Positions 1 through 22,346 of a DNA stretch of 64,000 nucleotides are shown here, piece after piece. Made by a program: the position numbers and the translations under genes. The notes under the pieces are model-generated. The model made no database searches and was not told the DNA's origin. It saw only the letters and a program-made list of their open reading frames with translations. The DNA lies in NCBI GenBank assembly GCA_963843375.1, contig CAWJKT010000007.1:1-64000 (forward strand), written 5' to 3'. The DNA comes from an uncultured Pseudomonadota bacterium. Lineage in GTDB: Bacteria > Oederibacteriota > Muellerivitia > Muellerivitales > Muellerivitaceae. Position 1 is the stretch's first letter. The number at the start of each line of letters is the position of its first letter.

Positions 1-101
1 CCGGTTTTTCCACATCTTCCAGGGAATTTCGGGGAGTGTCACACTTTTCGACCGCCTTTTTGCCCTCTCTAGACCGTCACACTATTGGACCGGCGTTTAC
101 A
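1..101 (-). mobile_element. Probable terminal end of an IS21-family-like insertion sequence (remainder outside window)
   Basis: Minus strand from 101 reads TGTAAACGCCGGTCCAATAGTGTGAC. A 17-bp imperfect direct repeat lies at 38-54 (gtcacacttttcgaccg) and 76-92 (gtcacactattggaccg). A terminal TG plus subterminal repeats is typical of IS21 ends, and it coincides with the premature stop of the adjacent ORF. Confidence 0.6.
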
Positions 102-1002
102 GGTATTGGATCGTCTTAAAGGACCTTATCTCGTTGGATATCAAGTTCTGGTAGTCCATCCGGGTCACGACCGGGAATTCCATCAACAGAAGGTTGGTCA
201 GGTTGCTCAATACATCGCTGGCTTGGTCCCGGTAGTAGGGCTCCTGCTCCGGTTGGTAAAAGAGGGACTTCATCAGGCCGTTAAATATCTCGTCCGCTTT
301 TTCTTTGTAGTCGGGGTTATAGGACTGGCTTCTTTTGATGTCCGCAAGGTCGAGGTACTTGAGGTCGCCAAGCCTCCCGTACTTGGAGGCAAAGTAGGGT
401 AGCTGTTTATTAAAGTTCGACTTCGCGTCGAAGACAAACATTCCTAATCCATACCGGACGGATTGCTCGATGATCCAATTGAGGATATTGGTCTTCCCCA
501 TTCCCGAAGATCCAATGACCTCCAGGTGGTATTTGAGGAATTCGGTGGGGATGAAGTACTTCCCCGTCACGTCAAGGTAGATGGGATATTTACCCGTCTC
601 TTCTTTCGGAGATTCCTTGTGGAGATCGGAACTCTTCTTCAGCGTGACGAAAACAAAGTAGGAGCAAAGGCCGATAAAGAACGCCATAGCCAAACCCACA
701 TCGCCCACAAAACCTTCGGTCCCAATGAAGGTTCCAAAGAAGTCGTGGACTAAGGACGTCAGAATCAAGGACGGGGCCAAGGCAAGAATGGGATTTAACG
801 GGAAGTGTTTTTCAAGAAGGTAGGTAATCCCCAGCACCATAACCGAAAGCAGGTCGAAGGGATTAAAGGCTACTGCAATAACACCGGAGAGTTCGAGGCC
901 AAGCTTTATCGCGGCATAGGTAGCGAAACCTACAAGGACGGAGGGTAAATCTCTTTCGACTTGATCCAATAACCGAACGATATCCATACAACTGCCCCGC
1001 AT
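97..1002 (-). pseudogene. VirD4/TraD/TrwB-like type IV coupling protein, C-terminally truncated
   Basis: N-terminal TM helices, HLEVIGSSGMGKT Walker A, FVFDAK and SYNP motifs. Stops at 301 aa with no Walker B region, at the putative IS end. Confidence 0.65.
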
Positions 1003-1197: not shown

Positions 1198-2766
1198 CTA
1201 CGAGTTCGAAATTAAAGCAAAATCTCTTTTTATGTTTTTCCGCTTAACAAAAGGTGAAAGGACATCGGAGAGCAACTTTTTGCTTAACCCATCATGTTTA
1301 ATATTACGAATTATAGCTCGACACGTTAATTCTAAAAGTTTCGTTTGCTGAACTCGCTTTATCTGTTTACGATCAATTAAATCCGAGATAAAAGTTACTT
1401 TTTTATTTTTTCGTCCCAGTTGCTTTCTTAAATTAACGAGACGTTTTTCAATATGGGGATAATTTTTATTAACCTTATTAGTTTCCAAATCAGAGACTAA
1501 AAGATTCACTTTCCGGAAAGTGCTTTGAAAATGCTCATCGTCAACAAATATACCTCCTCTTAAAAAACGTTCAATTACAGCCAATGAGTGCTCTAAATCT
1601 TGATTTGCATATCTTGTAAATGAAGCAGATCTACAAGCTTTGCTCATTTGTTTACCTAGTACCGTCATTTGTTCCAGTAATTTTTCGTAATTTATCGACT
1701 CTTCAAATCCATCTCGCCTGGCATTGGGCCGCAAGGTATAATCCAAATGAAATGATCCAATGTGCCAAGCAGCGAATCTTCTCTCTGTAAAATAATCAGC
1801 CAAAAACTCCTCATTCCCAATTTCAATATTGCCCTGACGCACTGATACCCCTCTCATCAAAACAGCTTTGGGGAGTCCACCTAAAAAGCTCGTTCGAGCG
1901 ATCCACCCCTTACCAAAAACAGAACCGTCCGGGGCACGAAATTCAATTAGATCAACATTAGAAATTCGATCTTTCTTTTTGTCAGTTATCAGAAACTCGT
2001 CTTGATAAGCATTAAATAATTTTTTCCCATTAAGAAAAATGTTATGTGTGCAATAACCTGGAAAATTTTTTAAATGTTCATTAATTTTCGAAGACCAAGA
2101 AAATTTACCACTATCGAATGGGAGGGGCGCTACCCGTAAAAGATATTGAGTGATTACATCTATCGAAGTCAGTCTATCCGTATGAAACCGGCTTACGTTT
2201 AGCATGGTTACACGAAAAAAATGTTTCGGTTCTTTTTCCGATGCTTTTCGAAAAGATATCTGTGCAATCTTCGAAATTACTTCGGACAGGCTTTTGATTC
2301 CCTTTACTTCCATTGAATTCCGAAGCAAATTACCATTCCATTGAACAACACCAATATTTTTATCGCCTTTTGATCTGGTTTCGAAAATTAAAGTGTCACA
2401 ATAACTCAAACCACCAAGACGACCAATTCCTCGAAACCCGCGAAGTCCAGCACCTTCTTTATTACTTAACCCTAAGCCACCGAGCTTTTTCTCCAGTTCA
2501 CTATTTTGTACTCCCGCTCCATTATCCTCAATAATGAGCTTTCGATTTTTTCCATCCAGGAATATTTCTATTTTAGAATCGGAAAAAGTAATCAGGTCTT
2601 TTTCAATCCCCTCATCAATTGAATCTGAACTGTTCTGGATATACTCCCGCAATGCCATACACGGATCACTGTACATTCCAGCGGTAATTATTTCTAAAAG
2701 TTGCTTGCCGAAAGAAGAGGTGAGCGCTCGCGCTTTTCCCCCTTCACGAGATATAATTCGAGCCAT
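1198..2766 (-). CDS. GHKL (Hsp90/MORC-like) ATPase
   Basis: LREYIQNSSDS (N-box), IEDNGAG (G1), GFRGIGRLG (G2), PNARRDGFE; helical C-terminus. Confidence 0.85.
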   Translation of the reverse strand: MARIISREGGKARALTSSFGKQLLEIITAGMYSDPCMALREYIQNSSDSIDEGIEKDLITFSDSKIEIFLDGKNRKLIIEDNGAGVQNSELEKKLGGLGLSNKEGAGLRGFRGIGRLGGLSYCDTLIFETRSKGDKNIGVVQWNGNLLRNSMEVKGIKSLSEVISKIAQISFRKASEKEPKHFFRVTMLNVSRFHTDRLTSIDVITQYLLRVAPLPFDSGKFSWSSKINEHLKNFPGYCTHNIFLNGKKLFNAYQDEFLITDKKKDRISNVDLIEFRAPDGSVFGKGWIARTSFLGGLPKAVLMRGVSVRQGNIEIGNEEFLADYFTERRFAAWHIGSFHLDYTLRPNARRDGFEESINYEKLLEQMTVLGKQMSKACRSASFTRYANQDLEHSLAVIERFLRGGIFVDDEHFQSTFRKVNLLVSDLETNKVNKNYPHIEKRLVNLRKQLGRKNKKVTFISDLIDRKQIKRVQQTKLLELTCRAIIRNIKHDGLSKKLLSDVLSPFVKRKNIKRDFALISNS

Positions 2767-4340
2767 TTTTTCATTTCCTTATCTGTACAATTTTCTAATG
2801 ATTTTCTAATCGTTTTAATACTATTCTCACACACCGCTTCATGGAAAAATCTGAACCGTTCCCCTTGTTCCTTTAATAACCCCGCAACAAATTCCCTAAA
2901 CTCTTCTATTTTCCCTGAGCCGGTTAAATTTTTCCTGCCGTTTGCATAAATCCTTTTTTCGTGTTTATTTCTATTTCGTAAAAGCTCTTCCGGCATATAT
3001 AAATTTTGGACGAATTCTTCAAAATTATTCCCAACCGTTCTTCGGGCTAGTGTCGGCGTTGGAGATATAGCTCCGTGAGCCGCGCCTTTCATAATTTCAA
3101 TGTTTCGAACAAACCGTTTTGTCCATGCAGGGTCTTTCAGCCAATCTTTAGTTTCCACCGGAACACTTTCAACATAATCTCGTCGGCGATTTGCCTCGGA
3201 CCCTCTTTTTTCGTCAATTGGAGCATATCGCATTGGATAACTATAAATCGCGCCCATTCTTTTTCCAGTTGTGCGCATCATTTCGTTCAATTCAATATTT
3301 ATTTCAATTCTTTCGTATAAATCTTTCGGTGTATCTTTCCAGTTATAAAGCAAATAATTCGAGAATTCGAGCAACCCATATTTATGAGCTAGTTCTAGGG
3401 CCTTAACATACTGTTTCTTTTCAGCAACTCGATCAAAAGCAATTCTCACCGGGCGCACATTAAGCTGAGAAATGAGTTTGACTTTCTCTTCAGTAAAATA
3501 TGTAGCATCCATGCCTTGGTTAAAATCAATACTACGTTTTTTTTGCGATTTACCCGATGTTGTCACGCCTTTCCCATATCCCAACTCAAGAAGGTCATCT
3601 ACTGTTTTAGCCAGGGTTGGAGCGGCCATAATATTGTTATCCATTAGTTTGAGATGACTCTTATCACCAAATTCACTTCTCAGCGCTTTGATGATGTGTT
3701 TTATATCAAAGTAAGATTCGTACACAGGTTCTATTTTTGGTACGGCGCACCAGGCACATTTCATTACACAACCTCTTGACGCATACCAATAATATGTATC
3801 CCCTATTCCATAGACACGCGGGTTCAAAATGCTGTAATCCGGCGGCAAATTGTCAATATTTTCCGTTCCTTCTAAACCAATTTGTCTTGGAGATGTCAAC
3901 GAACCAACCACAGGATAAATGCCAGTCGCACTAAACAGATCCTGCGCCATCATCGACGCCATAACCCCACCAACAAATATTTTTCCAGTTGTTCCTCCAA
4001 CTGCATCTTTATAAAAGTTAATCGTCTCAACAATTTTATCGAAGTGAAATGTAAAAAGTGTGGTTATATAAACCCGGTCCCAAAGATTCGAAGTTGAGAA
4101 CATTATTTCTCTGGGCGAAGAAGAGTCTTCAAAGAGTGATGAATCACAACCGGAAACAAACTTAACTTCGTCTCCGCGTTGTTTATGAAATCTAGCCAAT
4201 TTCATCAATCCCAAGGGCGGATACCATCTAGTATCATCTTCGCCATAAGGCTTCAGGTCCTCCATTCCGTTTGTCGGAACAAGAGAATTCTTTTTTAGTT
4301 GTGTAGTTCTATAGGCAGGCTCAACTAGCAAGACTCGCAT
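2694..4340 (-). CDS. Radical SAM protein with N-terminal cobalamin-binding-like domain
   Basis: CxxxCxxC (RGCVMKCAWC); MRVLLVEP...YPPLGLMKLA N-terminus; LMDNN and DFNQG motifs. Confidence 0.85.
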   Translation of the reverse strand: MRVLLVEPAYRTTQLKKNSLVPTNGMEDLKPYGEDDTRWYPPLGLMKLARFHKQRGDEVKFVSGCDSSLFEDSSSPREIMFSTSNLWDRVYITTLFTFHFDKIVETINFYKDAVGGTTGKIFVGGVMASMMAQDLFSATGIYPVVGSLTSPRQIGLEGTENIDNLPPDYSILNPRVYGIGDTYYWYASRGCVMKCAWCAVPKIEPVYESYFDIKHIIKALRSEFGDKSHLKLMDNNIMAAPTLAKTVDDLLELGYGKGVTTSGKSQKKRSIDFNQGMDATYFTEEKVKLISQLNVRPVRIAFDRVAEKKQYVKALELAHKYGLLEFSNYLLYNWKDTPKDLYERIEINIELNEMMRTTGKRMGAIYSYPMRYAPIDEKRGSEANRRRDYVESVPVETKDWLKDPAWTKRFVRNIEIMKGAAHGAISPTPTLARRTVGNNFEEFVQNLYMPEELLRNRNKHEKRIYANGRKNLTGSGKIEEFREFVAGLLKEQGERFRFFHEAVCENSIKTIRKSLENCTDKEMKKWLELYLVKGEKRERSPLLSASNF

Positions 4341-5325
4341 TGAATTCTCCCCTTAATTTTTTATAGACTGAAGAAACCCCTTTTTGACCGCCTATACCAG
4401 CAAACATACCCGATGAATTCCATTCAATTTTCTTTCGAAGAAATCGAAGGCGATCAAAAAAATACTTTTCCGAAAATGATGATTTTTGCGAAGTCAAAAC
4501 CACATCCGAAAGCAAATTCATGAGGGCGTAAAGACCGACGCCTTTCGTCAATAAACTGTGACGTGGATCGCTCCATTCCTTCACGAAAATCTTTGCAACC
4601 GCTAGCCAATAATTAATAATTATTTCACACGCAACATCAGGTCCGCGTTTTTCAGAAATTTGAGTTTTTGTTAAGAATCGTTTGATCGCTTTTTGCATCA
4701 TTCGCAGAGAAGTTTTTCGTTTCAAACCGGAAGTTGCTTTACCACCCAGTTTGATCATTTTGAACCAAGGTGAATTTGGATCATCATTTAACTTTCTAGC
4801 AATATATAAATGTGGAGCTTCAGCAACCATATCTGTAAGTAAATTACTTTGATGAAAATCCGTGAGAGAAGAAGACAGTCCCTTCGCCTTTGTATTAATA
4901 GTGACAAACATCGCCATCTCTTCTCTTAAATCAAGGCCAATAAATGTCATAAAAGCCAAATGGACTGGAGAATCTTCCATTTCGCCTAATCGATGTTGAC
5001 AATCTACTTGGGCTAAACACTTTGCATCCCGTTTAACAATCAAAGTCGAGCCTGTTTTACCCGCCTTGATTTCCCAGTTCTTTTGAAGATCATTTCTTAA
5101 ATTAAATGTTAACGGAATGGTAGATGAACCGGATTTCGAAATATACTTTTTAAAATCAACACTATGTTGAAGATTTCGGGGGCGCTGATATCCCAAACCC
5201 GTTTCCTCATCAAGGACATCGGCAAAGGACATAGAATAAAGCAGGTGTGCAGGAGCAAAGCCCAGAAACACGCTACGGTCTCCGCACTTGCCAATTATGC
5301 CAGGTATCTTTAAGTCTTGTTTCAT
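4321..5325 (-). CDS. DGQHR-domain (DndB/DpdB-like) protein, DCQHR variant
   Basis: GYQR, VDCQHRL and F-x-x-IN motifs of the DGQHR family. Confidence 0.8.
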   Translation of the reverse strand: MKQDLKIPGIIGKCGDRSVFLGFAPAHLLYSMSFADVLDEETGLGYQRPRNLQHSVDFKKYISKSGSSTIPLTFNLRNDLQKNWEIKAGKTGSTLIVKRDAKCLAQVDCQHRLGEMEDSPVHLAFMTFIGLDLREEMAMFVTINTKAKGLSSSLTDFHQSNLLTDMVAEAPHLYIARKLNDDPNSPWFKMIKLGGKATSGLKRKTSLRMMQKAIKRFLTKTQISEKRGPDVACEIIINYWLAVAKIFVKEWSDPRHSLLTKGVGLYALMNLLSDVVLTSQKSSFSEKYFFDRLRFLRKKIEWNSSGMFAGIGGQKGVSSVYKKLRGEFNASLAS

Positions 5326-5385
5326 ATTGCAGAATTTTAATGCAATTTGCAGAAAAACTAAACATCAATTTCCAAGACTTAAATC

Positions 5386-6378
5386 TCAATTTAGCTTAAG
5401 TTTTGACATCAAATCCCCAAGTAAATTCTTTATCTTTTTTAACTCGTATTCGCACTTAGCTTTTTGGCCTGATGGCATTTCTTGAATTTCCTCTGCCACA
5501 CCTTCAGAAGCCAGTTGTAATCGGAATTTATTGAGTCGTTTGTACCATTCATTTCCAGCGCCACCCGCAATTGCCTTTTCATAACTTTCTTCGAAATCAT
5601 TCTTTTTTTTCACAAAATCCGTTAAAACTTTATCAATTGTAGCGATCTTTGTGAGCTTTTCTCTAATATCAATGGCTTTTCCTATTTCCCCATTTTTTAT
5701 TTTTTCCACAATAAGCTCGTCAAGCACCGGAAACTTATTACGCGCTTGTTTAATCGTATTGTGCTTCAGATATTCGTCGTAATAGCTCCACCGATTTGTT
5801 TCATTTTCCTTGTGACGAACCATAAAACTGTAAACCTCTATTAACCTTTTAACATCCGTTTTGTTCAATCCCATCTCAGTAGCCATTTTTTCAATATCGA
5901 TATGATGTTTCTTATGACGACGATAGAGATAACCTGCCTGTTCGTAGGGCGCCCAATCCGTTCGCCCGATAATGTGATATTGACCTAGCAAGGAAAAAAC
6001 TATCGCTTCATCAATTGTCTCGGGCAATACTTTGCACCTAACCATTCCCCACTTAACTCCATTTAAACTGGCTAACGCACGATAGGCGGCTAATCGACTA
6101 TTACCTTCGAGAACAACCATGTCACCGTTACGAACAATTAAAGGATCAGTTAATCCGCCATTGGCTCTAATCGAATGGATCAAAGTTTTCACATGATCCA
6201 TTGCTTGAAGTCGCTTTTCGATATGTGCTTGGTCCGGTATTGTTCCATCAGCCGTTATCAATGAATAGATTCTAGGATTCTCTTGGTAGTACTTCAGTTC
6301 TCCTATCGGAACATCATATATTTCTACAGGGATTTCTTTTCCATTTATCATCAATACGTCATTTGTAGAATTTGCCAT
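5386..6378 (-). CDS. ParB/Sulfiredoxin-like domain protein
   Basis: NPRI, SIRANGGLTDPLIV, VLEGNSRLAAY, then a putative HTH region. Confidence 0.75.
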   Translation of the reverse strand: MANSTNDVLMINGKEIPVEIYDVPIGELKYYQENPRIYSLITADGTIPDQAHIEKRLQAMDHVKTLIHSIRANGGLTDPLIVRNGDMVVLEGNSRLAAYRALASLNGVKWGMVRCKVLPETIDEAIVFSLLGQYHIIGRTDWAPYEQAGYLYRRHKKHHIDIEKMATEMGLNKTDVKRLIEVYSFMVRHKENETNRWSYYDEYLKHNTIKQARNKFPVLDELIVEKIKNGEIGKAIDIREKLTKIATIDKVLTDFVKKKNDFEESYEKAIAGGAGNEWYKRLNKFRLQLASEGVAEEIQEMPSGQKAKCEYELKKIKNLLGDLMSKLKLN

Positions 6379-7863
6379 TTAATGGCTCCTCTTAGTTTTG
6401 TTTAAAATACTTTTTATTAATTCACCAAAGTCATAAGAAATTTGAGTTTGATAATCTTCCAGTCGTATGTCCCCCTGACCAAGACCGGCCGCTAATTGTT
6501 TGGCATTTAGAAGCTTATCAATCCAAACATCTACCGAATCCGACATTATCAAGTTATAGATAAAACATGTTTTAACTTGTGAAATTCGATGGATCCTATC
6601 TTGAGCTTGTAAATAGTCATCCAAACTAAAAGATCGGTCATAAAAAATCGCATGATTTGCAACCGTAAGGGTTAGTCCCTCTTTTGCAGCTCCAGGAGTT
6701 GCAACAAGCACTGTAACTTCTGGATTATTCATAAATTGATCTATGGACTTATTTCTTGTTTCCATGCTCAGTTTTCCATGAATTTTGCAAGAGCCAAATG
6801 CCTTTAGCCTCCCACATAGCCAATCAGCATTTTCCGTGAAGGTTGTCCACACAATTGTTTTTTCACGACTAATCTTTATTTTTTCGAGAAGGTCAACCAG
6901 GTATGGTATTTTCCCAGGTTCCGCCCGATAACTATCGTCAATTAATTTTGGATTAGACGCAATTTGTACCAATCGCAACAATCGTTTCAAAACATCTTCC
7001 GATGAATCTTCTTTAGGAATTCCTTCTTTTACAATTATCGCCCTTAAATCCTCTCGGATTTTTTGGTACAGTTCATATTGAACCGTTTCCCAATCCACAA
7101 TAATGTTCTCATATTTCTTTTCGGGCAACTTGATAACACCAGAGGATTTTGTTTCCCGAACAGAAAAATCGGATATTTTTTTTTGCAAACCCGAAAGGCT
7201 TTTTTCAAAATCATCTTTTTTTTGATCGTCCAAAAATAAATCATTGGTCAAATTATTTTTTCTTTTAAAAACGTCAAAATCTTCTCCGAGACTTTTCCCT
7301 CCGTCAAGAAACTTAATCTGAGCCCACAAATCAAACGGTCGATTTGCCATTGGCGTCCCAGTCATAATAACTCGACGTTTAAACAACTTAGAGAGAAGAA
7401 AAAAAACTTTTGTAATCTCAGAATCAGGATTTTTTATTTTGGCCGATTCATCAAGTATCGCAGCAACGTCTCTAGTTTTAAGAAATATAAGGAATCGGTC
7501 CTTCTCACTCTTTAAGACCTCATAGTGAGTCAGCATTATTCTTGCGGGACTGTTAAAAACAAAAAAGTTACTCTTTTTATTTTCGCCGAGGACTTTTGGG
7601 GTTATATGAGTATGAAGTTTCAACTCTTTTTCCCAATTTTTGATCAACCCCTTTTTAGTGACCAAAAGAATCGTATCCACCTGCTTCCGTTCTAACCAAT
7701 AGAGGCTAAGATCGATTGCCATTTTCGTTTTTCCCAAACCCTGCTCATGAAATATTGCCGCATATTCAAGATCACGGATTTCTTCGACCGCTTTTTTTTG
7801 AAAATCTAAAGCGTTTAATTTAGGGCTCGAATTCGGTTCAGAAACCCTTTTTATTTTTTGCAC
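6379..7863 (-). CDS. SNF2-family (SF2) helicase/ATPase
   Basis: EQGLGKT, ILDES, MTGTP, EGLTL and QAQDRIHRI motifs. Confidence 0.9.
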   Translation of the reverse strand: MQKIKRVSEPNSSPKLNALDFQKKAVEEIRDLEYAAIFHEQGLGKTKMAIDLSLYWLERKQVDTILLVTKKGLIKNWEKELKLHTHITPKVLGENKKSNFFVFNSPARIMLTHYEVLKSEKDRFLIFLKTRDVAAILDESAKIKNPDSEITKVFFLLSKLFKRRVIMTGTPMANRPFDLWAQIKFLDGGKSLGEDFDVFKRKNNLTNDLFLDDQKKDDFEKSLSGLQKKISDFSVRETKSSGVIKLPEKKYENIIVDWETVQYELYQKIREDLRAIIVKEGIPKEDSSEDVLKRLLRLVQIASNPKLIDDSYRAEPGKIPYLVDLLEKIKISREKTIVWTTFTENADWLCGRLKAFGSCKIHGKLSMETRNKSIDQFMNNPEVTVLVATPGAAKEGLTLTVANHAIFYDRSFSLDDYLQAQDRIHRISQVKTCFIYNLIMSDSVDVWIDKLLNAKQLAAGLGQGDIRLEDYQTQISYDFGELIKSILNKTKRSH

Positions 7864-7865
7864 AT

Positions 7866-8276
7866 TCAGCCCCTGAGATTTTCCAAAATAAAAGTGCGGA
7901 CATTTCTTGTATCCGTTTTAACTTGAATATTCTTCACTAAATTTCTTGCAAGACGTGTTACCGGCCAGGGAACGGCCAAAACAAAGAGTGACGGGTGATT
8001 TAATTCACAGAATTTTAAAAAAGCTTTGAATTGGTTAATAGTATGAACCGTCTCAACATCCCTTAACGTTTTCGCTTCTCCGATTATCATGTTAAATGAA
8101 TTAGTTTTTGGCACAAACACATCCGGACAATGATCTGAGATCAAAGGTGGTTTTTTCATACGATTAGAATTGGGACTATCCACAAGTATTGAGCCCGAAT
8201 CACCCGATAGATGAGTAACCGATATCCAATTGACTAATTCATTTACTAATTTTATATGACTCTGTGATTCGGCCAT
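7866..8276 (-). CDS. Small PD-(D/E)xK nuclease-fold protein
   Basis: PDVF...IIGEAKT motif in 136 aa. Confidence 0.6.
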   Translation of the reverse strand: MAESQSHIKLVNELVNWISVTHLSGDSGSILVDSPNSNRMKKPPLISDHCPDVFVPKTNSFNMIIGEAKTLRDVETVHTINQFKAFLKFCELNHPSLFVLAVPWPVTRLARNLVKNIQVKTDTRNVRTFILENLRG

Positions 8277-8277
8277 G

Positions 8278-9300
8278 TCAACCTTCTGATGAGATGTCCT
8301 TGCAAAGCTGGTTTAATTGATCGCAAGCTTCTCGGATCTTTTCATTCTCACTCGAAGTTATATCAGCACGAAGTCTTTGAACTTCCCCAAAAGGCATATT
8401 ACGAATTCTTTTACTAATTTCCTGGGTTAACTGTTCCAAGGTCGCATCTTTTAAAGCCGCATCAGGCGTTGGTATATCTAAGACTCTGACCGCCTCCTTA
8501 GTGCCATCTCGTAAAAAAACTTCTTTGCTTTTTGGATTTTGAAGAATTTTTGGTAAATCTCGAACTGTAATTAAAGGAGAAATTAATCCTTCGTGAACCC
8601 ACTTAGCAAAATCGGTTTTGGTATATTTTGATTGTAAAACTGAGTTTAAAATTCGAGGGTTTTGCAGTTCCACGAAAGCACTAAATCTGGTCGGATCAAA
8701 CGAATCTTCATCAACAATGGGCCGGTAATATTGCTCCATATCCTGGTACGCCCCTATATAACCCTGAACCTCTTTCGCTCTCCCTCCACAAAAATCAACT
8801 ATCTGACCCATGGTCAGATGCTCTCCGTTTCTCAAAAAATCTAAATATTTTGCTTTTGAGTACGGGTCCCATGGGCGCGGACCAACCAAATGAGCTTGTA
8901 ATCTTATTGCATCAATATGTGCTTGAGGAAGATCGGCATAAACAATTGTCGGTATTTTTTTCCAATTGTTTGAGTTCTTTTCCTTTTCCTGCGTTTTAAA
9001 TTCCCTATAAATTAATACTCGTGTATTCCCTTCAATAACCGTAATTTTATTTGTTGATGTTTCTTTATTTGCAATTACGGGATTTATTATTCCTCCACTA
9101 GTTTTTATAGACTCCCTTAATGAATAAAACGTTGTTCCATCTGATGCGGTTCCGTCGCCCGCACCTAATGCCAGGCTCATTTGTTCGGCGGTAAGACTAG
9201 TTCCATACATTCCAACATAATGTGAAATTCGAGGATTATTCATGTCCAAGGCAATTTGATCAACATCCAACAATTCATATTTAAAATCTCGGCTTATCAT
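8278..9300 (-). CDS. ParB/Sulfiredoxin-like domain protein (paralogue of 5386-6378)
   Basis: NPRI, SIKTSGGIINPVI, VIEGNTRVLIY, HLVGPRPWDPY; GGAGG RBS upstream. Confidence 0.75.
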   Translation of the reverse strand: MISRDFKYELLDVDQIALDMNNPRISHYVGMYGTSLTAEQMSLALGAGDGTASDGTTFYSLRESIKTSGGIINPVIANKETSTNKITVIEGNTRVLIYREFKTQEKEKNSNNWKKIPTIVYADLPQAHIDAIRLQAHLVGPRPWDPYSKAKYLDFLRNGEHLTMGQIVDFCGGRAKEVQGYIGAYQDMEQYYRPIVDEDSFDPTRFSAFVELQNPRILNSVLQSKYTKTDFAKWVHEGLISPLITVRDLPKILQNPKSKEVFLRDGTKEAVRVLDIPTPDAALKDATLEQLTQEISKRIRNMPFGEVQRLRADITSSENEKIREACDQLNQLCKDISSEG

Positions 9301-9456
9301 TTGGCCTCCCTAACAAATATTTAACCCGAGGATTTTACCCATTTTTCGTGCATATCCACAGGACATTGTTTAGGTCAGATAGATGTTAATCGGGCCATTT
9401 TTCCTATGTTAAAAACATAAAAAAAATTATTTCAGAAACCGGTTTTTAAAATTATT

Positions 9457-10485
9457 TTACTTCTTGACCTTTGCGGGTGAATTAGCATTGAACCCATTCA
9501 ACATATTTTGACCGTAAGTTTGGAGCCATTTAAGGCTACCTGGGGGCATGCCTATCGGAATTGTTTCTGCGGTTTGTGGTTTCCAATTTAATAATCCATC
9601 TCTACCATCACCAACTGAAGAGATTTCTAAAAATGAATCAGGATAGAACTCTGGAGAATGTTCTTCTTCGTTTTCAAATCTACACAGAATCATCCAATGA
9701 ATCATTGGGCTCATTCCGCCACTTTTCAAAGGGGTTCCCTGATAAAGATATAACGGAAAAAAGAGCGACGAAATATGTGGACTTTGAAAACCTTTGCAAA
9801 GCAAATCATACATAAAGGTTTTGATAGCCCAAGAATATTTACCGCCCAAAGGCCCCATGGCGGGTACAGGAAGTGCATTTATAGCTTCACATTTATCTTT
9901 AAATTTTTGAGACTCGCTTAAAAGACCTTTTTTTAAAAAACGTTCTTTTTTCAATGCATCAATTTGGTTTCTAACAGTTATAAGCAAAATAAAGTGAGAG
10001 GAACCGCCCATAGTTTGAAAACATTCTTTTTGATCTCTTAAAATTTGCTTAATCGCTTCAAAGCGAAGAACTTTTTCCGTTCCAGCAAAAGTAGAAACCC
10101 TACTACCTATTTCGTCACAAAAATCCAAATTGTAGAGTGTGACAACTTTATCTTGAGAGTATTTTTGATAGTCGAAGTCTCTTCGTTGAATAATAACTTC
10201 TTCCATGCTTCCCAGATATGCATAGCCAGGAATTCCAGCCAACATCATATTTTTTCTCAAGGCTTCTACATTTGCACGCCCATCAGAACCACCTCCAAGC
10301 GGTTCGAAAGCGACAACATGATCAATCATGTCCCTCCACAACTTTATATCGATCAAATCAATACCCGGTAAACCCATATATCTATATTTAACACCATACT
10401 GCTTATGAAGATATTGGAGTACCGGTGTATTCCATCGAAGTCGAACATTATCTTTGGATGAATTATTTTGAAAAGGTTTTTTCAT
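9457..10485 (-). CDS. Putative SAM-dependent methyltransferase-fold protein
   Basis: YMGLPG glycine loop, VVAFE acidic strand end and YNLDFC resemble Rossmann methyltransferase motifs I, II and IV. Confidence 0.5.
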   Translation of the reverse strand: MKKPFQNNSSKDNVRLRWNTPVLQYLHKQYGVKYRYMGLPGIDLIDIKLWRDMIDHVVAFEPLGGGSDGRANVEALRKNMMLAGIPGYAYLGSMEEVIIQRRDFDYQKYSQDKVVTLYNLDFCDEIGSRVSTFAGTEKVLRFEAIKQILRDQKECFQTMGGSSHFILLITVRNQIDALKKERFLKKGLLSESQKFKDKCEAINALPVPAMGPLGGKYSWAIKTFMYDLLCKGFQSPHISSLFFPLYLYQGTPLKSGGMSPMIHWMILCRFENEEEHSPEFYPDSFLEISSVGDGRDGLLNWKPQTAETIPIGMPPGSLKWLQTYGQNMLNGFNANSPAKVKK

Positions 10486-10487
10486 AA

Positions 10488-12098
10488 TTAAAACTTCTCG
10501 TCAAAATAATTCCGTAGCTCCTTTAACATGCTTTGGTAATTCTTTTTCTCAAGATAAGGAATCAAAAACTCCTTCTCCAAAAGCTTTAATGCTTTTTGAA
10601 CATCTGCCGTTAATTGTATTCCTGCATATTCAAAAACAGAAACAAGGTCGTTATTAGTACTTTCTTTAAGGCTAGCGGCAACCGCCGAAAGCTTAGCTTC
10701 CGTTTGTATAGACTTCGCCACATCTTCTTCCAAGCGTCTTGATGACTTCATGTTTTCTAGCAAAGTATTTTTCACAAGAGAAATACAATCCTTCAAGCTT
10801 TTCATAACATCGTTATATTGTTCCTTATGGTCCTCCAAATCTTCGAACCGCTTTTTCCGTCCCTTAAGCAGATGTTCCAAATGAATAAGTTCGCTATTAA
10901 ATGTGAGCATTTTCTCTTTGTCTCGGCGGCTAGTTAATATTTCTTTAGCGATTTCAGAAACTCTACTTGTCACATCAGTTAACACATCGAGGGCCTTGCT
11001 CTCCTCTTGAATTACGTTTGCCCAATCCGATAAATCTTTAATAAATTTCGGAAGCACAAGTTCAAGAAACTCCAACCTTGTTGAATTGCTTTCAAAGTCA
11101 CTTCTTGCTGCATTTGGTAAAAGATTTAGATTTTGAATTATTATTTCACCGGTTATACGTCTATTAAAAACCGGCCTTTTGAAAAAATGTTCCAGATACG
11201 AACGATTGGCTATTGAAAACCCAAACTTCTTTATTAAAAGTCCGCGCAGGGCGGAATTTTTCAAAACACTTCGTTCATCATTAATACAAACCCATGCAAA
11301 ACCATAATCTTTTTTCCCATGTTTCAACTTGAAATATTTCGGCCTGTGAACCCCACCTTGTGAAAAAATATCATTTGTATAAGGCCGGTAAAGATCCTGT
11401 TTTCTATCATGTATTTGGAGGGTTAACGGAACGACTCGATAATCTTCATCCTCAAATCTTTTTTCAACTTCAGCTCCGAATTTAAATTCCGGGTGAAAGG
11501 GTAGCGGAACAACATCTTGTAAATATTTTTCAGTGGATTCCCAATTCAAATAACTCGATTCACCAGTCATTCCACTCATGATGACTTTTGTGCCATGATC
11601 TTTTATGGTGTCTTTATCATCAACTTCAACATAGACATTGCCTTCTAGGAGTTTTTCAAGATAGAGTTTGGACGGAAGACCTTTTTTTCTCCGCTCTTGT
11701 TCTTCGGCTAACCTTGTACGGATTGTTTTAAAGTCAAACTTAATGTAATTTCCACTGCTTTCGTCTTTAGATTTAGTATAGACTTCCAGCAAATCGCACA
11801 GATTAAAAGCAGAATAAATTCCGATGCCACGAAACCCCACGTTGATTTTCGGATTTTTATCCGAAATGCCCAATCTTTTTGCCCGACTTGCTTCGTCTTT
11901 CGTCATTCCTTTACCATCATCGACAATTGCCACCGTTGACGGACCAATTATTAATTCTATTTTTTTTGATGCTGCGTCAATAGAGTTTTGAATATATTCC
12001 CTAAATGCATCGAGCGTGTATTTATATAGTCCCGTGGTTAATATCGGAAGTATTTCAGCCCCTATGTCTCTTTTCGAGAAATGCAATCTATCGGCCAT
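10488..12098 (-). CDS. GHKL (Hsp90/MORC-like) ATPase (paralogue of 1198-2766)
   Basis: FREYIQNSIDA, DDGKGM, GFRGIG, PNAARSDFE; coiled-coil C-terminus. Start set at ATG 12098 behind a GGAGA RBS. Confidence 0.85.
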   Translation of the reverse strand: MADRLHFSKRDIGAEILPILTTGLYKYTLDAFREYIQNSIDAASKKIELIIGPSTVAIVDDGKGMTKDEASRAKRLGISDKNPKINVGFRGIGIYSAFNLCDLLEVYTKSKDESSGNYIKFDFKTIRTRLAEEQERRKKGLPSKLYLEKLLEGNVYVEVDDKDTIKDHGTKVIMSGMTGESSYLNWESTEKYLQDVVPLPFHPEFKFGAEVEKRFEDEDYRVVPLTLQIHDRKQDLYRPYTNDIFSQGGVHRPKYFKLKHGKKDYGFAWVCINDERSVLKNSALRGLLIKKFGFSIANRSYLEHFFKRPVFNRRITGEIIIQNLNLLPNAARSDFESNSTRLEFLELVLPKFIKDLSDWANVIQEESKALDVLTDVTSRVSEIAKEILTSRRDKEKMLTFNSELIHLEHLLKGRKKRFEDLEDHKEQYNDVMKSLKDCISLVKNTLLENMKSSRRLEEDVAKSIQTEAKLSAVAASLKESTNNDLVSVFEYAGIQLTADVQKALKLLEKEFLIPYLEKKNYQSMLKELRNYFDEKF

Positions 12099-12297
12099 TA
12101 TTTTTTCTCCAAAATTAATTTGATTGGCGATATCTACTAAAATACGTACGCTTGTTATGTCGATGAAGCTCCATAATAAACACAATCCTTGCCAAAACAA
12201 CAAAAACACAATGATTACCTTGGCTCCCAGCTTAAGATTTCCGACCTGTTTCCATATCGAACCTGAGAAAAGCGATTATCGAAAAAGAGTGCTGCAC

Positions 12298-12334
12298 TTG
12301 ATGAATGTCAGAAACCAACCTATAATTCTGACAT
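12298..12334 (+). promoter_or_regulatory. Sigma70-type promoter overlapped by an inverted-repeat operator
   Basis: TTGATG(12298)-17 bp-TATAAT(12321); perfect IR ATGTCAGAA (12305-12313) / TTCTGACAT (12326-12334); AAGGAG RBS follows. Confidence 0.7.
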
Positions 12335-12347
12335 AAGGAGTTTAAAC

Positions 12348-12959
12348 ATGAGTCCAGTAATTCAAACCATACTCAAATCTTCCCAAACTCGGCCCGAGGG
12401 GAGTGTCTTATCGCCTAAGGAATTCTTGGGCCAGAATAGCCGCGCCTCTGTAGACCAGGCTTTTACCCGTTTGACCAAAGCGGGTAAATTGATCCGGGTT
12501 AGCCAGGGCGCTTATGTAGCACCGGTAGAAGGACGCTTTGGAACCCGGCCTCCGGCTCCCGAAACCGTCATTAAGTCTATGGCTGTAAGAAATGGCGAGG
12601 AAGTAGCCTCCAACGGGGCTGTTGCGGCAAACTCCCTTGGCTTAACCACCCAAGTCCCTGTCCAGGAAGTTTTTGTTACCACGGGGCGCAGTCGGACTTT
12701 ACGACTCGGAAAAAGAACAATCAAATTCAAACACGCGCCACGCTGGCAGTTGGCTTTGGGAAACCGCCCAGCAGGTATGGCTGTTCGAGCTTTAGCCTGG
12801 GTAGGCCCATCGCACGCCCCAGAAGCCCTTGTTAAAATTCGTCAAAAGCTTCCCAAGGAAGAATGGAAAGCAATGGTTGAATCGCGTGCTTTTTTCCCTG
12901 GATGGATCGCGAAATTACTTGGCGAAGCCGAACAACATACGGTAGGCAACGTTAGATAA
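12348..12959 (+). CDS. DUF6088/AbiEi-like type IV antitoxin-type DNA-binding protein
   Basis: SRASVDQAFTRL...GKLIRVSQGAY wHTH; GAVAANSLGLTTQVP motif. Confidence 0.8.
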   Translation: MSPVIQTILKSSQTRPEGSVLSPKEFLGQNSRASVDQAFTRLTKAGKLIRVSQGAYVAPVEGRFGTRPPAPETVIKSMAVRNGEEVASNGAVAANSLGLTTQVPVQEVFVTTGRSRTLRLGKRTIKFKHAPRWQLALGNRPAGMAVRALAWVGPSHAPEALVKIRQKLPKEEWKAMVESRAFFPGWIAKLLGEAEQHTVGNVR

Positions 12960-12968
12960 AATAACTCT

Positions 12969-13760
12969 TTAGGGAATTTGTTGAAGGACCCCATTTATAC
13001 GTTCGTAAGCATCCCGAATCGTTCTTTCCCGTTGCACTTCATCATATTCACTAAGGAATTCAGCTACGGCTTTGGGACCCCTCGCGTCAATGGCTGAAAA
13101 GTTTTGCCTCAACTTTTCAACTCCCTCTTTTACCCCCGGATTCCCCATTTGCTTTTTAAACTGATGGGCCAATCCCAATCCTGATTGGTAGTTTTTAACA
13201 CAGAAATAAATATCGTACGCGTCTTTGGATTCGAATCGATCCATGAAACTGATGGCTTTCATTGAAATAAATGAAACCAGGGACGCCGCCAGGAATCTCA
13301 CCACTCCCTCGTGTCCATCCGGGAAAATGCCATTGGTTCTGATTTCCACCGGCTCCTCAAAGGCCAATTCGCACCCATGGACAGCTTGGGCCAAATCATC
13401 CTTGGAATGTGAATCTTCACCAGTTAGTAAATCCACCTGGATCTTATACTTCTTCCCATTCTTCTCAAGAATCCGGTGGAATATAAAAGGCTTATCATTA
13501 CTTTGTTTGTAGTTGTTTTGAATTAATATGGTTTCAATCATTGCCAAATCCGAGCTTTGAACAGTCTCACGATCAATCGCCAAATCAACGTCAGTCGTAC
13601 CAACATGCGGTACCTCAGCTGTTGGAAACATGACCCACGGAACCGATCCGCCAATCAAAACAATATGGTCATGGTAGACATTCAATATTTGCATGAGCTC
13701 AAGCATCACCGACCGCGCGGCCTCCACTTCCCCTTTTTCAAAATCTCTTTTCATTGCCAT
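12969..13760 (-). CDS. Nucleotidyltransferase, AbiEii-like type IV toxin
   Basis: LIGG...GTTDVD Pol-beta-type motif; K...KDAYD C-terminal motif. Confidence 0.75.
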   Translation of the reverse strand: MAMKRDFEKGEVEAARSVMLELMQILNVYHDHIVLIGGSVPWVMFPTAEVPHVGTTDVDLAIDRETVQSSDLAMIETILIQNNYKQSNDKPFIFHRILEKNGKKYKIQVDLLTGEDSHSKDDLAQAVHGCELAFEEPVEIRTNGIFPDGHEGVVRFLAASLVSFISMKAISFMDRFESKDAYDIYFCVKNYQSGLGLAHQFKKQMGNPGVKEGVEKLRQNFSAIDARGPKAVAEFLSEYDEVQRERTIRDAYERINGVLQQIP

Positions 13761-14824
13761 GTAGGTCTGATTACCTCTTCCAAAAGGGCTTCGGCGGCTT
13801 CTTTACCTCTGCCTTTGTTTCCGATCAGCTCTAAATATACCTGTATCGGCGAGGCAACAGGTATTCCATTAAAAAATTGAGCTCCATAAAAAACGCCTTC
13901 ATCGGCGGGTTTAATAAGGGTGAAATTAGCTCCACTATCCACTTCTTTTAAACCAAGTGCCGCTGCCACAAGATCAATGTCTTCGGCGTAAGCTGTTTCA
14001 CCGTTGTATCTGGTAAACGGGTAATAGAGTTCAGCACCCGTAAAGCTCGTCAGAGCATAGGTTTGATGCCGCCGATCATGGGCTTCCTGCAACAACCCTT
14101 CCATTTCATTCAGGCTTCTCATCGTATAGAAACCCCTGACGGCATCTTGATCTTTTTTATAATTCTGCGCCCACTCCATCAATAACGCTTCGGGCTTCAC
14201 CAAAGAAAGATTTGCGCGTTCCGACTTAATCCATTCCCTGTCTTGCAGATGTTTTTTTACATGGGCCACATGGGCCAAACTCACTTTTGCTTCATTCGCC
14301 AAATCCTGCATTTTCCAAAACTGTTTAGGATGAGTCAGTAGAACCCGAAGAACCCTTGCCGCCCTAGGCGTATAAAGGGTCATTAAAAAAGTACGGCGCC
14401 CAAAAGGATTTTTTTGGTTCCTGACTTTGAGGAAAAGACCGTCAAATTCCAAGCGGCAATTACCGGCCAAGTCCACCGTGCCGATTCCAGCTTCTTTGCA
14501 GATCAGATCAGCTTCATCGGAGACATAAGGGGCGAACATAACACCGTAGGCTTGGGGTTCGCGCGCCAAATAGTTTTTAAACCGTTCCACGGCAATCCTG
14601 GCTTCGCGGGGCTGGCCGTTGCCAAACACTTCCCCAAGCACACTGTATTTTCGTTTTCCATAAGTGAACGAAGCGGTTATATCCGCCTTTTGAGCGGTAT
14701 CTTTGTGGGCAATAATATGCAGATCGGGGATGGGCCCAGCTTGATTCAGGCAATTCTCTAGCGATCTCATTGCGTTTATCTGTAAATCACTATAGTTTTT
14801 CATTAATATAGGCTTTTTTAACAT
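13751..14824 (-). CDS. AbiEi-like type IV antitoxin / transcription regulator
   Basis: HTH (LANEAKVSLAHV), GANF and ASPIQVYLEL...GRGKEAAE motifs; overlaps the start of the toxin gene. Confidence 0.75.
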   Translation of the reverse strand: MLKKPILMKNYSDLQINAMRSLENCLNQAGPIPDLHIIAHKDTAQKADITASFTYGKRKYSVLGEVFGNGQPREARIAVERFKNYLAREPQAYGVMFAPYVSDEADLICKEAGIGTVDLAGNCRLEFDGLFLKVRNQKNPFGRRTFLMTLYTPRAARVLRVLLTHPKQFWKMQDLANEAKVSLAHVAHVKKHLQDREWIKSERANLSLVKPEALLMEWAQNYKKDQDAVRGFYTMRSLNEMEGLLQEAHDRRHQTYALTSFTGAELYYPFTRYNGETAYAEDIDLVAAALGLKEVDSGANFTLIKPADEGVFYGAQFFNGIPVASPIQVYLELIGNKGRGKEAAEALLEEVIRPTWQ

Positions 14825-17345: not shown

Positions 17346-17468
17346 AACTTCCTTCTCTTTCTTTAAATGGTGTTCATTATTAGGCTTCTCGCAATGAGTG
17401 GGTCAATGGGAGATCTTAAATAATTAATTTTTCATCATTACTCGACCTAAAATCCAAAATACTTCGCT

Positions 17469-17502
17469 AAAAATAAAAGGGGGCGGCTATCTGCCACCCC
17501 CT
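17469..17502 (-). terminator. Intrinsic terminator
   Basis: AGGGGGTGGC-agata-GCCGCCCCCT stem followed by TTTATTTT, downstream of the gene ending at 17519. Confidence 0.7.
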
Positions 17503-17518
17503 CAAACCTCTCACAATC

Positions 17519-17875
17519 TTAAAAGTACATATAAGCTTCGTACTTGTCCAAATGACTTTCGATTTCACCCAGACAGTCCTTGCAGGCCAGCGTTATCTTC
17601 TTGCCGTTCGACAAGGTTACTTCCATCCGGTTGAACTTATTGAAAAGCATATTGGGCATAGAGGGACAGCTTCTATACCAAACACCGGATTGAACAACGG
17701 AATTAAGATTTACAACCGTTGTCTTGGCCCCTTTCGGCCCGATTTCATATCCCGTATGGATACTTGAAAGCGGAACTCCGGGAGCGACCGGCATGGCCGG
17801 GTGGTTACCCGCAAAGGCAGAAGCAACGGTTCCGAACATAAAAGCCAAGGCTAAAAGCGTGTATTTTGTTTTCAT
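17519..17875 (-). CDS. Exported TRASH/YHS-like metal-binding protein
   Basis: Signal peptide (ASAFA); CP...ACKDC motif; GAGGAGG RBS. Confidence 0.6.
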   Translation of the reverse strand: MKTKYTLLALAFMFGTVASAFAGNHPAMPVAPGVPLSSIHTGYEIGPKGAKTTVVNLNSVVQSGVWYRSCPSMPNMLFNKFNRMEVTLSNGKKITLACKDCLGEIESHLDKYEAYMYF

Positions 17876-17962
17876 CTGAGTCCTCCTCATTTTCTTGAAA
17901 GTGGTTATGACGCGCGCAAACGGGGCGTCGGTCTACCAGCACACCGAACTTTCAATGAAGAA

Positions 17963-18370
17963 TCACAGTCGAAGGACCTGGGAGTATTCCGGGTGGTAAA
18001 GAATTCGAATTTTAGGGCGCGAGACTAAAAATCTATCACCGTTTACGGCCAGGAAGGTTTCATTTGACGGAAGAAAAACCAACGCGAGACCAACGAACTT
18101 GGCCTCCCGTGTCTTTGAGACAACGGCGTGATTCGTGTAATTACAACAGGAGTGGTTACAGCAAGGAGCTGTCTGGTTTTGCTGACAGTTTGACGCAGAT
18201 AATGACAAACCGTCTTTACACCCGTCCACCATCGCTGGGCAAAAACAGGGGGTAAGAAAGCTCGTCACCGCCACTACTAAAAACATGCGACTAAAGGAGA
18301 GCATAGCCTTGCTCCTTTTTGAAAGGTTACGTCTGATTCCGCCATTTATCAATCCAGTCTCCCTATTCAC
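17963..18370 (-). CDS. Cys-rich exported leader-type protein (start may be further downstream)
   Basis: Hydrophobic segment, TPCFC, CCNHSCC; ends VLRL. Confidence 0.55.
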   Translation of the reverse strand: MNRETGLINGGIRRNLSKRSKAMLSFSRMFLVVAVTSFLTPCFCPAMVDGCKDGLSLSASNCQQNQTAPCCNHSCCNYTNHAVVSKTREAKFVGLALVFLPSNETFLAVNGDRFLVSRPKIRILYHPEYSQVLRL

Positions 18371-18667
18371 CTAATACATTAAGCTCTCGTATTTTTTCAG
18401 GTCTTTCTCAATTGGCTCTTTGCACTTTGGACAACACATCATGATTTTCTTGCCGTTGGAAAGGGCTGCTTCCACCCCTTGGCCGGTCCCGATTGTTTTT
18501 CCTGTGACTGGACACTTCTTGGCGTTCAAACCCTTTCCAAAGTTGGCCACGTCGGTACCTTGAAACCTGCTACTCGACATGTCCATGGAACCAGACGGGC
18601 TATCGCAATCCATAATCGACCCGAAAGTCAGGGCAATAACCACCAAGATCAAACCCAGTTTTATCAT
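18371..18667 (-). CDS. Small exported TRASH/YHS-like metal-binding protein
   Basis: Signal peptide; CPVTG...CCPKC; GGAG RBS. Confidence 0.7.
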   Translation of the reverse strand: MIKLGLILVVIALTFGSIMDCDSPSGSMDMSSSRFQGTDVANFGKGLNAKKCPVTGKTIGTGQGVEAALSNGKKIMMCCPKCKEPIEKDLKKYESLMY

Positions 18668-18754
18668 CGTTCACTCCATATTCACCGACACCGTTCCAAG
18701 TGGAACGAAAACCCAAAATCTGAAAGATTTTCGTTCCACCAGTGGCTACTCAGT

Positions 18755-19051: not shown

Positions 19052-19120
19052 AATCTTGCTCCTTTGTTTTAATTCCCAAATTTCCATCACGGAAACAAGG
19101 GCACATCGCGCTCTACCTCG

Positions 19121-22303: not shown

Positions 22304-22346
22304 TGTGATTTCCCCTGTTGATACTTTTTAGAGTTATATAAGTCAT

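Follow-up and report, generated by a model that had tools for sequence, protein, structure and literature searches.

A modular gene system joining GHKL ATPases to a radical SAM enzyme and a methyltransferase-fold protein, a candidate for mobile mark-and-restrict defence

Among the described systems closest to the locus studied here are operons of MORC and paraMORC ATPases, which were predicted in 2008 to work in the manner of restriction-modification systems (Iyer, Abhiman and Aravind, PMC2292703). In the accessible part of that paper, these operons, some of which have two GHKL+S5-type ATPases, also encode a methylase, a nuclease of the restriction fold and a helicase of the SWI2/SNF2 type, and they show sporadic lateral spread. 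We analysed a 64,000-nucleotide stretch of DNA (the window; positions 1 to 64,000 of contig CAWJKT010000007.1, assembly GCA_963843375.1) from an uncultured bacterium. Positions 1198-12098 of the window hold nine genes, numbered G1 to G9 in transcription order, that show the same traits, with a probable nuclease and a methyltransferase fold, and add a radical SAM (S-adenosylmethionine) enzyme and ParB-like and DGQHR partners, none of which is mentioned for the MORC and paraMORC operons in the accessible part of PMC2292703. Our analysis suggests a mobile system of three modules in which GHKL ATPases are paired with particular enzymes. Some role in defence is probable. The nine genes and the two wider gaps between them are as follows, in window positions:

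10488..12098, minus strand: G1, module A, GHKL ATPase of the methyltransferase-coupled clade, 536 amino acids (aa), paralogue of G9
9457..10485, minus strand: G2, module A, protein with a class I SAM-dependent methyltransferase fold, stand-alone, 342 aa
9301..9456: gap of 156 bp, AT-rich, at the A/B border, matching a module border seen by comparison
8278..9300, minus strand: G3, module B, ParB-like protein 1, 340 aa
7866..8276, minus strand: G4, module B, small probable PD-(D/E)xK nuclease, 136 aa
6379..7863, minus strand: G5, module B, minimal SNF2 ATPase/translocase, 494 aa
5386..6378, minus strand: G6, module B, ParB-like protein 2, 330 aa
5326..5385: gap of 60 bp at the B/C border, matching a module border seen by comparison
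4321..5325, minus strand: G7, module C, DGQHR/DndB-family protein with a DCQHR motif, 334 aa
2694..4340, minus strand: G8, module C core, radical SAM enzyme whose N-terminal Rossmann domain is B12-binding-like, 548 aa
1198..2766, minus strand: G9, module C core, GHKL ATPase of the radical-SAM-associated clade, 522 aa

The nine open reading frames (136-548 aa) fill the block and are all intact. We placed the start of G1 at ATG 12098, with GGAG as its ribosome-binding site; the mechanical open reading frame begins at GTG 12209. From G1 to G9 the junctions measure 2, 156, 1, 2, 0, 60, -20 and -73 bp, six of the eight thus being 0-2 bp or overlapping. GC content is 37.7% in the operon and 50.4% in the remaining window, and at third codon positions it is 0.30-0.36 in the operon genes compared to 0.57-0.66 in three flanking genes. 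We regard the nine genes as horizontally acquired. A preliminary description made from the sequence alone had reported nine co-oriented, AT-rich and tightly packed genes, and the measured values bear this out. Its domain labels also held for the two GHKL ATPases, the methyltransferase fold, ParB-like G3 and G6, the SNF2 protein, the DGQHR protein and the radical SAM enzyme; the nuclease label for G4 is only a lead.

No described system matches this gene set. In PADLOC-DB 2.0 we found no full-length matches to the required components of any one system; G2, G4, G8 and G9 had no match, and the other genes gave only domain-level matches scattered over ZorD, DpdE, DrmD, DpdB, MzaB and PDC-M38A. The preliminary description had not recognised the locus as a named system and would have taken the lack of a full-system PADLOC match as support for novelty; we find no such match. 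It had also failed to recognise the core enzymes of known systems here, and indeed the operon contains no DndC, DpdA, PglX/PglZ or canonical methylase. No description of the gene set was found in the literature searched, most subscription papers and key supplementary lists being outside that search.

Individual systems resemble the locus in part. Like the MORC family, G1 and G9 have intact GHKL ATP-binding motifs (REYIQN33, DDGKG60 and GFRGIG88 in G1). In contrast to the MORC and paraMORC operons, the methylase is not of the Dcm or Dam type and the GhXhhpXXRhl signature of the MORC S5 domain is missing, in 0 of 40 G9-type and 0 of 20 G1-type sequences. Of the features that mark the five paraMORC families (ExxxH, or fused REase, TIR or HxH tails), ExxxH did not turn up in the C-terminal part of the GHKL proteins in a motif search run without family profiles. 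The Dpd island, whose DNA chemistry is not methylation, as may hold here too, shares with our locus a DGQHR protein (compare DpdB), an SNF2 protein (compare DpdE) and a multi-gene layout. However, Pfam, NCBIfam and PADLOC models detect neither the DpdA transglycosylase nor DpdC among the nine proteins, G7 reaches only 74.8 bits against the DpdB model NF041060 (cut-off 300) and passes no model more specific than the general DGQHR domain, G5 aligns with less than half of DpdE, and G8 is not QueE-like (fold match at Z 8.2). The phosphorothioation systems Dnd (DndABCDE) and Pbe (PbeABCD, the CxC-ABC system of PMC10853773) resemble the locus in that a regulator of the DndB family stands next to an ATPase and a putative writer, and in five distinct loci PbeA-PbeC immediately precedes relatives of the core. 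Unlike them, the operon has no DndC, no DndD/CxC ABC ATPase and no DndE; their place is taken by a GHKL ATPase together with a radical SAM enzyme that lacks auxiliary-cluster cysteines. A search of the host genome (80% complete) for DndC (TIGR03183) was also negative. BREX and DISARM differ too, as PglZ, BrxC and DrmA/DrmB/DrmC are missing from the operon and only the shared SNF2 domain resembles DrmD/BrxHI.

Two recent preprints describe radical SAM genes in immunity. Ophion, an operon of radical SAM, PHP and PRTase genes, is presented in the accessible part of its report as a validated anti-phage system (10.1101/2025.09.30.679545). It resembles our locus at the level of gene content, in having a radical SAM enzyme in the operon, and all partners differ, with no PHP or PRTase here. 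The second source, in one sentence of its accessible text, reads a three-gene neighbourhood of a cyclase-like effector (PAACC), an HSP90 and a radical SAM gene as toxin-antitoxin-like (10.64898/2026.10.19.760177). As described there, it shares with our locus an HSP90-like protein, a radical SAM gene, a third exchangeable gene and an immunity context. The present locus has no cyclase. The two may be relatives, a likeness drawn from description only.

To judge from the loci compared, the system is organized as three modules rather than as a fixed nine-gene unit: A (G1-G2), B (G3-G6) and C (G7-G9, the core). We divide it in this way because linkage from three different anchors persists in shuffled order and because the 156-bp and 60-bp gaps fall at the borders. 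The G2 anchor gave 25 genome loci, from Acidobacteriota, Chloroflexota, Planctomycetota, Bacteroidota, Fibrobacterota and others. A GHKL gene lies directly upstream of the methyltransferase gene in 22 of them, and a radical SAM relative is present in 21, with a 22nd just outside locus L006; five of these relatives are short and distant (26-27% identity) and keep the cysteine motif. Loci L008, L009 and L012 have no radical SAM gene, and the contigs of the last two are only 5.4 and 2.5 kb long. For the G8 anchor, the best 80 of 142 metagenome loci fell into 56 clusters at 85%. Here a GHKL gene follows directly downstream in 41 of the 49 dereplicated loci with enough DNA, a DGQHR-type gene sits directly upstream of the radical SAM gene in 32/45, and module B accompanies 5 of the 22 long dereplicated loci of the closest G8 relatives. 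From the G3 (ParB1) anchor, all six plasmid records belong to the 12 that have relatives of both G8 and G9, and four of five loci from viral collections carry the radical SAM and GHKL genes.

All nine genes together occur in none of the 133 other loci, many of them short or redundant, and the present copy is the fullest among those examined. A Dehalococcoidia genome (G061) carries eight genes in the order C-B-IS21-A, without G7; a Roseomonas plasmid has C followed by an inverted B; and the seven genes of B and C stand together in eight distinct loci. The distinct system proposed in the preliminary description thus stands in part: the genes co-occur in distant phyla with relatives among defence genes, and linkage is kept across phyla, whereas the fixed set of nine gives way to modules whose order is shuffled and, in some loci, inverted. 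Pairwise identities correlate within modules at rho 0.82-0.88 and between modules at 0.46-0.65, of which only the contrast is used because kin are not independent. This comparison leaves out 12 duplicate or fragment loci as well as L042, L077, L015 and L118.

Modules A and B appear optional and exchangeable around a core of radical SAM and GHKL genes (plus DGQHR). Cores whose radical SAM proteins are at least 85% identical carry different upstream modules, namely Pbe genes (L064), BrxD-like and HerA genes (L053, L055, L060 and L061) or a long DGQHR gene (L043 and L062). In five distinct loci (L034, L064, L073, L076/077 and L099), whose radical SAM proteins are 52-70% identical, the core comes straight after PbeA, PbeC and a small gene, all co-oriented.

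Several recurrent variants were seen among these loci. A six-gene version, mostly from Bacteroidota (L014-L018, L021, L022 and L024), has the conserved order NurA-HerA-GHKL-GHKL-methyltransferase-long radical SAM (~650 aa). In L053, L055, L060, L061 and L093, one or more BrxD-like ATPases, a PLD protein, HerA and two unassigned genes lie directly upstream of DGQHR-radical SAM-GHKL. A radical SAM gene of the spore photoproduct lyase (SPL) family follows the core in L060-L062, with a GMT-wHTH gene in L060 and L061. Where the DNA suffices to tell, a further variant without a downstream GHKL gene (L063, L095, L097, L098, L101-L103 and L105) consists of a small membrane protein, a 458-aa DGQHR protein and the radical SAM enzyme.

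In both GHKL ATPases, HATPase_c_3 scores above its cut-off (49.5 bits in G1, 47.7 bits in G9), and the proteins are paralogues (hhalign 100%, 450 columns). In profile searches of the PDB, the best match of G1 is MORC3, followed by HtpG/TRAP1 and MutL. A quick tree of 81 GHKL rows resolves three supported groups, labelled by the anchors that had also served to fetch the loci: a methyltransferase-coupled clade of 19 that includes G1 (support 98), a PIN-coupled clade of 4 and a radical-SAM-associated clade of 58. L006, L109, L115 and L121 were omitted from the tree. The PIN-coupled clade reflects a PIN_8-GHKL pair that replaces the GHKL-methyltransferase module on alphaproteobacterial plasmids (L107, L108, L131 and L132).

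We also modeled the G1-G2 complex, which scored 0.49 compared to 0.00 for the best of three controls, with contact agreement of at least 93% and partner pLDDT (predicted local distance difference test) no lower than 79. The pass is weak, since 18 of 157 solved complexes, and both of the 2 mismatches that passed (of 215), also fell at 0.60 or below. The preliminary description had cast the GHKL proteins as restriction components. Clades that follow the partner, together with the G1-G2 model, point to more than this, namely to dedicated partners of the putative writer enzymes, and these partner-specific clades offer a testable model for the role of bacterial MORC-like ATPases.

G8 belongs to an uncharacterised, strongly conserved family that occupies the position of a writer. 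Its CxxxCxxC motif (191/195/198) is kept in 74 of 74 full-length metagenome relatives. It is also intact in all 38 radical SAM open reading frames listed from the compared loci, so that no inactivated twin was seen among them, although the profiles used might miss such copies. Searches gave no PDB sequence relative and no Pfam match to the SPL family. The structure model (pLDDT 85) finds its best folds in AprD4 (Z 16.6), MgmA (Z 16.1), TsrM (Z 14.6) and MtaB/MiaB (Z 14), and places a B12-binding-type Rossmann domain N-terminal to the TIM barrel, the architecture of cobalamin-type radical SAM enzymes. The Pfam B12-binding model reaches 19.3 bits, below its cut-off of 32.1, and the fold suggests that G8 may use cobalamin. 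AprD4, the top fold match, has a B12-binding-type domain yet is not known to depend on cobalamin. Methylthiotransferases (MiaB/RimO/MtaB) carry three extra conserved cysteines for an auxiliary cluster. These were not found among 54 sequences of the G8 family, in which C191, C195 and C198 are the only conserved cysteines, which argues against sulfur insertion by way of such a cluster. A fold search among viral proteins returned only unnamed B12-type radical SAM proteins at 9-12% identity. Short phage relatives of G8 (phrog_9298) lie among early genes. The one in LoVEphage has a PAPS reductase gene on one side and Dam genes on the other; three other phages with such relatives have no PAPS reductase or Dam neighbours. 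In the temperate Marinitoga camini virus 1 (L126:4959-8785), a short radical SAM relative is convergent on HerA-NurA.

Upstream of G8, G7 matches the DGQHR model TIGR03187 at 138 bits (cut-off 59) and also the DndB family of Pfam. All 33 members of its cluster have the subfamily-specific motif DCQHR, where four other neighbouring DGQHR clusters have DGQHR.

G2 has the fold of a class I methyltransferase without the hallmarks of a DNA methylase. Foldseek matches of its structure model (pLDDT 89) are class I methyltransferases throughout, and the VIA best match is Trm1 (Z 12.6, root-mean-square deviation 4.0, 223 aligned). Residues of the SAM pocket are nearly invariant, K11, R15, Y36, G38, P40, D46, W50, G92, D121 and Y248 each being kept in at least 87 of 91 distant relatives. 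Canonical DNA methyltransferases carry (D/N/S)PP(Y/F) in motif IV for m6A or m4C, and PC for m5C. G2 shares their Rossmann SAM-binding fold and lacks this catalytic motif, the corresponding region of the family reading NLDFC or variants (91 relatives). We considered C123 as a catalytic cysteine like that of m5C methylases, a proposal weakened by its conservation in only 74/91 distant relatives. By sequence, G2 is probably a distant relative of the PP_RS20740 family: it reaches 30.8 bits against NF047698, below the curated cut-off of 200, and 21 of 24 distant G2 relatives also match that model weakly, at best with 61 bits. No G2 match was found in plasmids, nor one for the distant methyltransferase of L005.

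Module B combines two ParB-like proteins with a motor and a small putative nuclease. G3 and G6 are paralogous (hhalign 99.3%). G3 (motifs NPR22 and EGNTR90) falls with ParB_N Atlas clusters at 0.98 and matches ParB-like phrog_620; G6 (NPR34 and EGNSR91) matches TIGR00180 weakly and ParB-like phrog_620/723. G5 has SNF2-rel_dom and Helicase_C above cut-off, with intact Walker A, DESAK, TGTPMAN and motif VI, and it aligns only with the SNF2 half of the ZorD, DpdE and DrmD models. G4 has no Pfam, NCBIfam or PADLOC match. Among 11 relatives it conserves H7, PD51-52 and GEAKT66-70, including E67-A-K69, and its nearest named Atlas clusters are PD-(D/E)xK at 0.87-0.88; it is probably a small PD-(D/E)xK nuclease.

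The system is rare and mobile. It had no match in 30 genomes of the same family and a single distant match in 60 relative genomes; the methyltransferase profile hit 0 of 98 other genomes of the host phylum, and the radical SAM gene occurs in 3 of 301 genomes of the phylum of G061, or ~1% of genomes searched. Relatives lie on plasmids and proviral contigs, with modules B and C on plasmids of cultured Rhizobium, Mesorhizobium and Roseomonas. Plasmid pNL1 of Novosphingobium aromaticivorans and a plasmid of Rhizobium WSM1325 are among the cultured carriers. In a PADLOC scan of neighbours that covered 62 of 99 candidate proteins and had no background control, 18 of the 62 matched at 1e-30, the matches including Druantia, restriction-modification systems of types I, IIG and III, Cas9, Lamassu, PbeC and one generic kinase.

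We tentatively favour a reading in which these genes form a mobile, modular mark-and-restrict defence system against phages or plasmids, built on MORC/MutL-like GHKL clamps that each carry one enzyme. In the order of steps that we propose, the G9 ATPase would close on DNA or on a client and position G8, which would make a chemical mark on the cell's own DNA by radical methylation or rearrangement rather than by auxiliary-cluster sulfur insertion. The DCQHR protein G7 would couple marking to nucleotide levels or limit it, as is thought for DndB and DpdB. A second clamp, G1, would carry G2, which could add a second methyl mark, supply a precursor or perform a finishing step. Protection would then come from module B, with the ParB-like G3 and G6 loading on DNA, the SNF2 motor scanning it and the small nuclease cutting what is unmarked.

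A bolder form of this reading, possible and rather doubtful at present, makes it a new class of epigenetic defence, which would place a further self-marking chemistry beside methylation, phosphorothioation and deazaguanine. MORC-like GHKL clamps would be interchangeable carriers, and a cobalamin-type radical SAM enzyme and a non-canonical methyltransferase would write a modification directly on chromosomal DNA (a methylated backbone, say, or a sugar or base with an added C-methyl group) that is read by swappable arms such as ParB-SNF2-nuclease, PbeAC or HerA-NurA. Should G8 modify DNA, the mark would be new, as would the radical chemistry acting on a polymer, and CxC/Pbe systems that have no known writer would find an explanation. 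CxC-ABC systems recruit phosphorothioation enzymes or cytosine methylases, and others may mediate different modifications, according to the accessible part of Rakesh 2024 (PMC10853773). The window contributes to the comparison a single operon of 10.9 kb with the three modules all intact, a permuted eight-gene match elsewhere and the partner-specific GHKL clades.

Beyond the anchor-labelled tree, the uncontrolled neighbour count and the non-independence of kin, several observations weigh against marking of self DNA by a linked set of genes. The nearest folds of G8 (AprD4, MgmA, TsrM and MiaB) act on small molecules, proteins or tRNA and none on DNA, and no cobS was found in the host genome (80% complete). 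G2 has no DPPY/NPPY or PC motif and no methylase family match in Pfam, NCBIfam or PADLOC, and the best 150 of its 263 relatives show no fused target-recognition domain, as all are at most 454 aa long. Linkage also has gaps: there is no GHKL gene downstream of the radical SAM gene in 8 of the 49 dereplicated loci, no methyltransferase gene in any of the 22 long loci of the closest G8 relatives, and no radical SAM gene in the 19.8 kb of ParB1 locus L124. In or beside HerA-NurA operons lie 8 of the 58 GHKL rows of the radical-SAM clade, mostly non-adjacent to the radical SAM gene. Radical SAM proteins beside methyltransferases elsewhere are only 33-39% identical to G8, compared to 58-67% in loci with B and C, and for this reason module A probably joined the present copy separately, and this copy looks like a recent mosaic. 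A 1359-aa fusion of DGQHR, radical SAM and GHKL parts (P0241) would tie the core together; it is a single record on one contig, with an apparent frameshift in the radical SAM tail at the second joint, and may be an artefact. The varied upstream modules are as compatible with a core that is autonomous and sits in a hotspot as with a writer whose restriction arms can be swapped, and several of the defence neighbours are complete restriction-modification systems with their own methylases.

The alternative that survives best is abortive or signalling defence, which we consider unlikely while taking it seriously. On this account, infection would trigger the radical SAM enzyme to make a modified nucleotide or small molecule, in the manner of viperin or Ophion, or to act on invader DNA. 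The DGQHR and ParB proteins would act on nucleotides by making, sensing or destroying them. The GHKL proteins would be Hsp90-like switches that keep their clients (radical SAM enzyme, methyltransferase or PIN nuclease) inactive until a trigger arrives. The substrates of the best G8 folds suit this account, with Ophion as precedent for a radical SAM enzyme in anti-phage defence, yet viperin-like folds score far lower for G8 (Z 8.5-8.7). Clients held by a switch would agree with the pairing of the same GHKL family with a PIN_8 nuclease, a typical toxin domain, with the much faster divergence of the GHKL partners than of the radical SAM enzyme (median identity 34% versus 56%) and with the toxin-antitoxin-like reading of the cyclase-like effector-HSP90-radical SAM neighbourhood. 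Against that stand the MORC3 match of G1 and, above all, partners that are overwhelmingly DNA-acting (SNF2, ParB, PD-(D/E)xK, PbeA/C, HerA-NurA and BglII-like).

Another alternative, which we regard as improbable, treats A, B and C as two or three small units, defensive or selfish and independent of one another, that gather in shared mobile islands and lie side by side here by chance. Such a patchwork would agree with the recovery of all nine genes from none of the other loci, the wide gaps at module borders, the lower correlation between modules and the nearly identical cores with different neighbours. Modules A and B nevertheless each co-occur with the radical SAM gene from their own anchors (22/25 genome loci; 6/6 plasmids and 4/5 viral loci), even though that gene is so rare (3/301 genomes, and 1/60 of the relatives). 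In addition, the three modules meet again, permuted, in G061, and G1 and G9 are paralogues of one family.

A role in DNA repair, in which the radical SAM enzyme removes a lesion or phage hypermodification by the logic of spore photoproduct lyase, aided by clamp, motor and nuclease and leaving no self mark, is very improbable: the SPL-family and GMT-wHTH genes after the core in L060-L062, the HerA-NurA pairs of the Bacteroidota version and the link of the PP_RS20740 family to furfural tolerance in the accessible part of PMC9630843 are outweighed by a rare, patchy, mobile distribution beside defence genes, the missing SPL family match of G8 and the remoteness of the PP_RS20740 relationship (30.8 of 200 bits).

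The operon lies, as the preliminary description had it, between the remnant of a conjugation gene and AbiE genes:

97-1002, minus strand: truncated VirD4/TrwB-like coupling protein gene, outside the system, ending at an IS21-type end
12348-14824: AbiEi (plus strand) and AbiEii-like and AbiEi_2 (minus strand) toxin-antitoxin genes, a separate system in the same island

A 92-bp repeat at window positions 10-101 cuts the coupling protein gene. It recurs on contigs C5, C8, C9, C11 and C14, on C11 just ahead of the istAB pair of an IS21 element, and is the probable cause of the break in the assembly. Contigs from public runs bridge the junctions G1/G2 (X1), G2/G3 (X1, X2), G3/G4 (X2, X3), G5/G6 (X3) and G7/G8 (X1, X2); among the 32 of 143 public-run pieces inspected, none bridges G4/G5, G6/G7 or G8/G9. 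Run X1 may be the source sample of the window. Run X6, with no cover over 10001-12500 at low depth, was not used. Scans of the locus for promoters and terminators were at chance level, with 25 found versus 31 expected.

A tRNA-Leu(CAA) gene lies at 25478-25564 (minus strand). The first 25.4 kb of the window look like an island beside this gene, because a genome of the same genus (G001) keeps tRNA-Leu and the right-hand housekeeping block together and has the copper-efflux block 1.77 Mb away. Contig C11 carries a 62-bp stretch that copies the 3' end of tRNA-Leu; this copy could not be assigned as the att site of the island, as it borders another integrase-bearing stretch. That stretch is a second small island (G000:C11:49900-58900; L140) with an integrase, IS21, a RelE/HTH pair, a DUF4143 ATPase and AbiEi, and it ends at the 62-bp copy. 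Further along the window, SecA is split into two overlapping open reading frames (395 and 518 aa) in different frames (32951-35636, minus strand), by a frameshift or an assembly error. Between the AbiE genes and the tRNA, a heavy-metal resistance block (14868-24627, minus strand) encodes a CopA-like P-type ATPase, a CusA-like RND pump, an HMBD protein and an outer-membrane factor.

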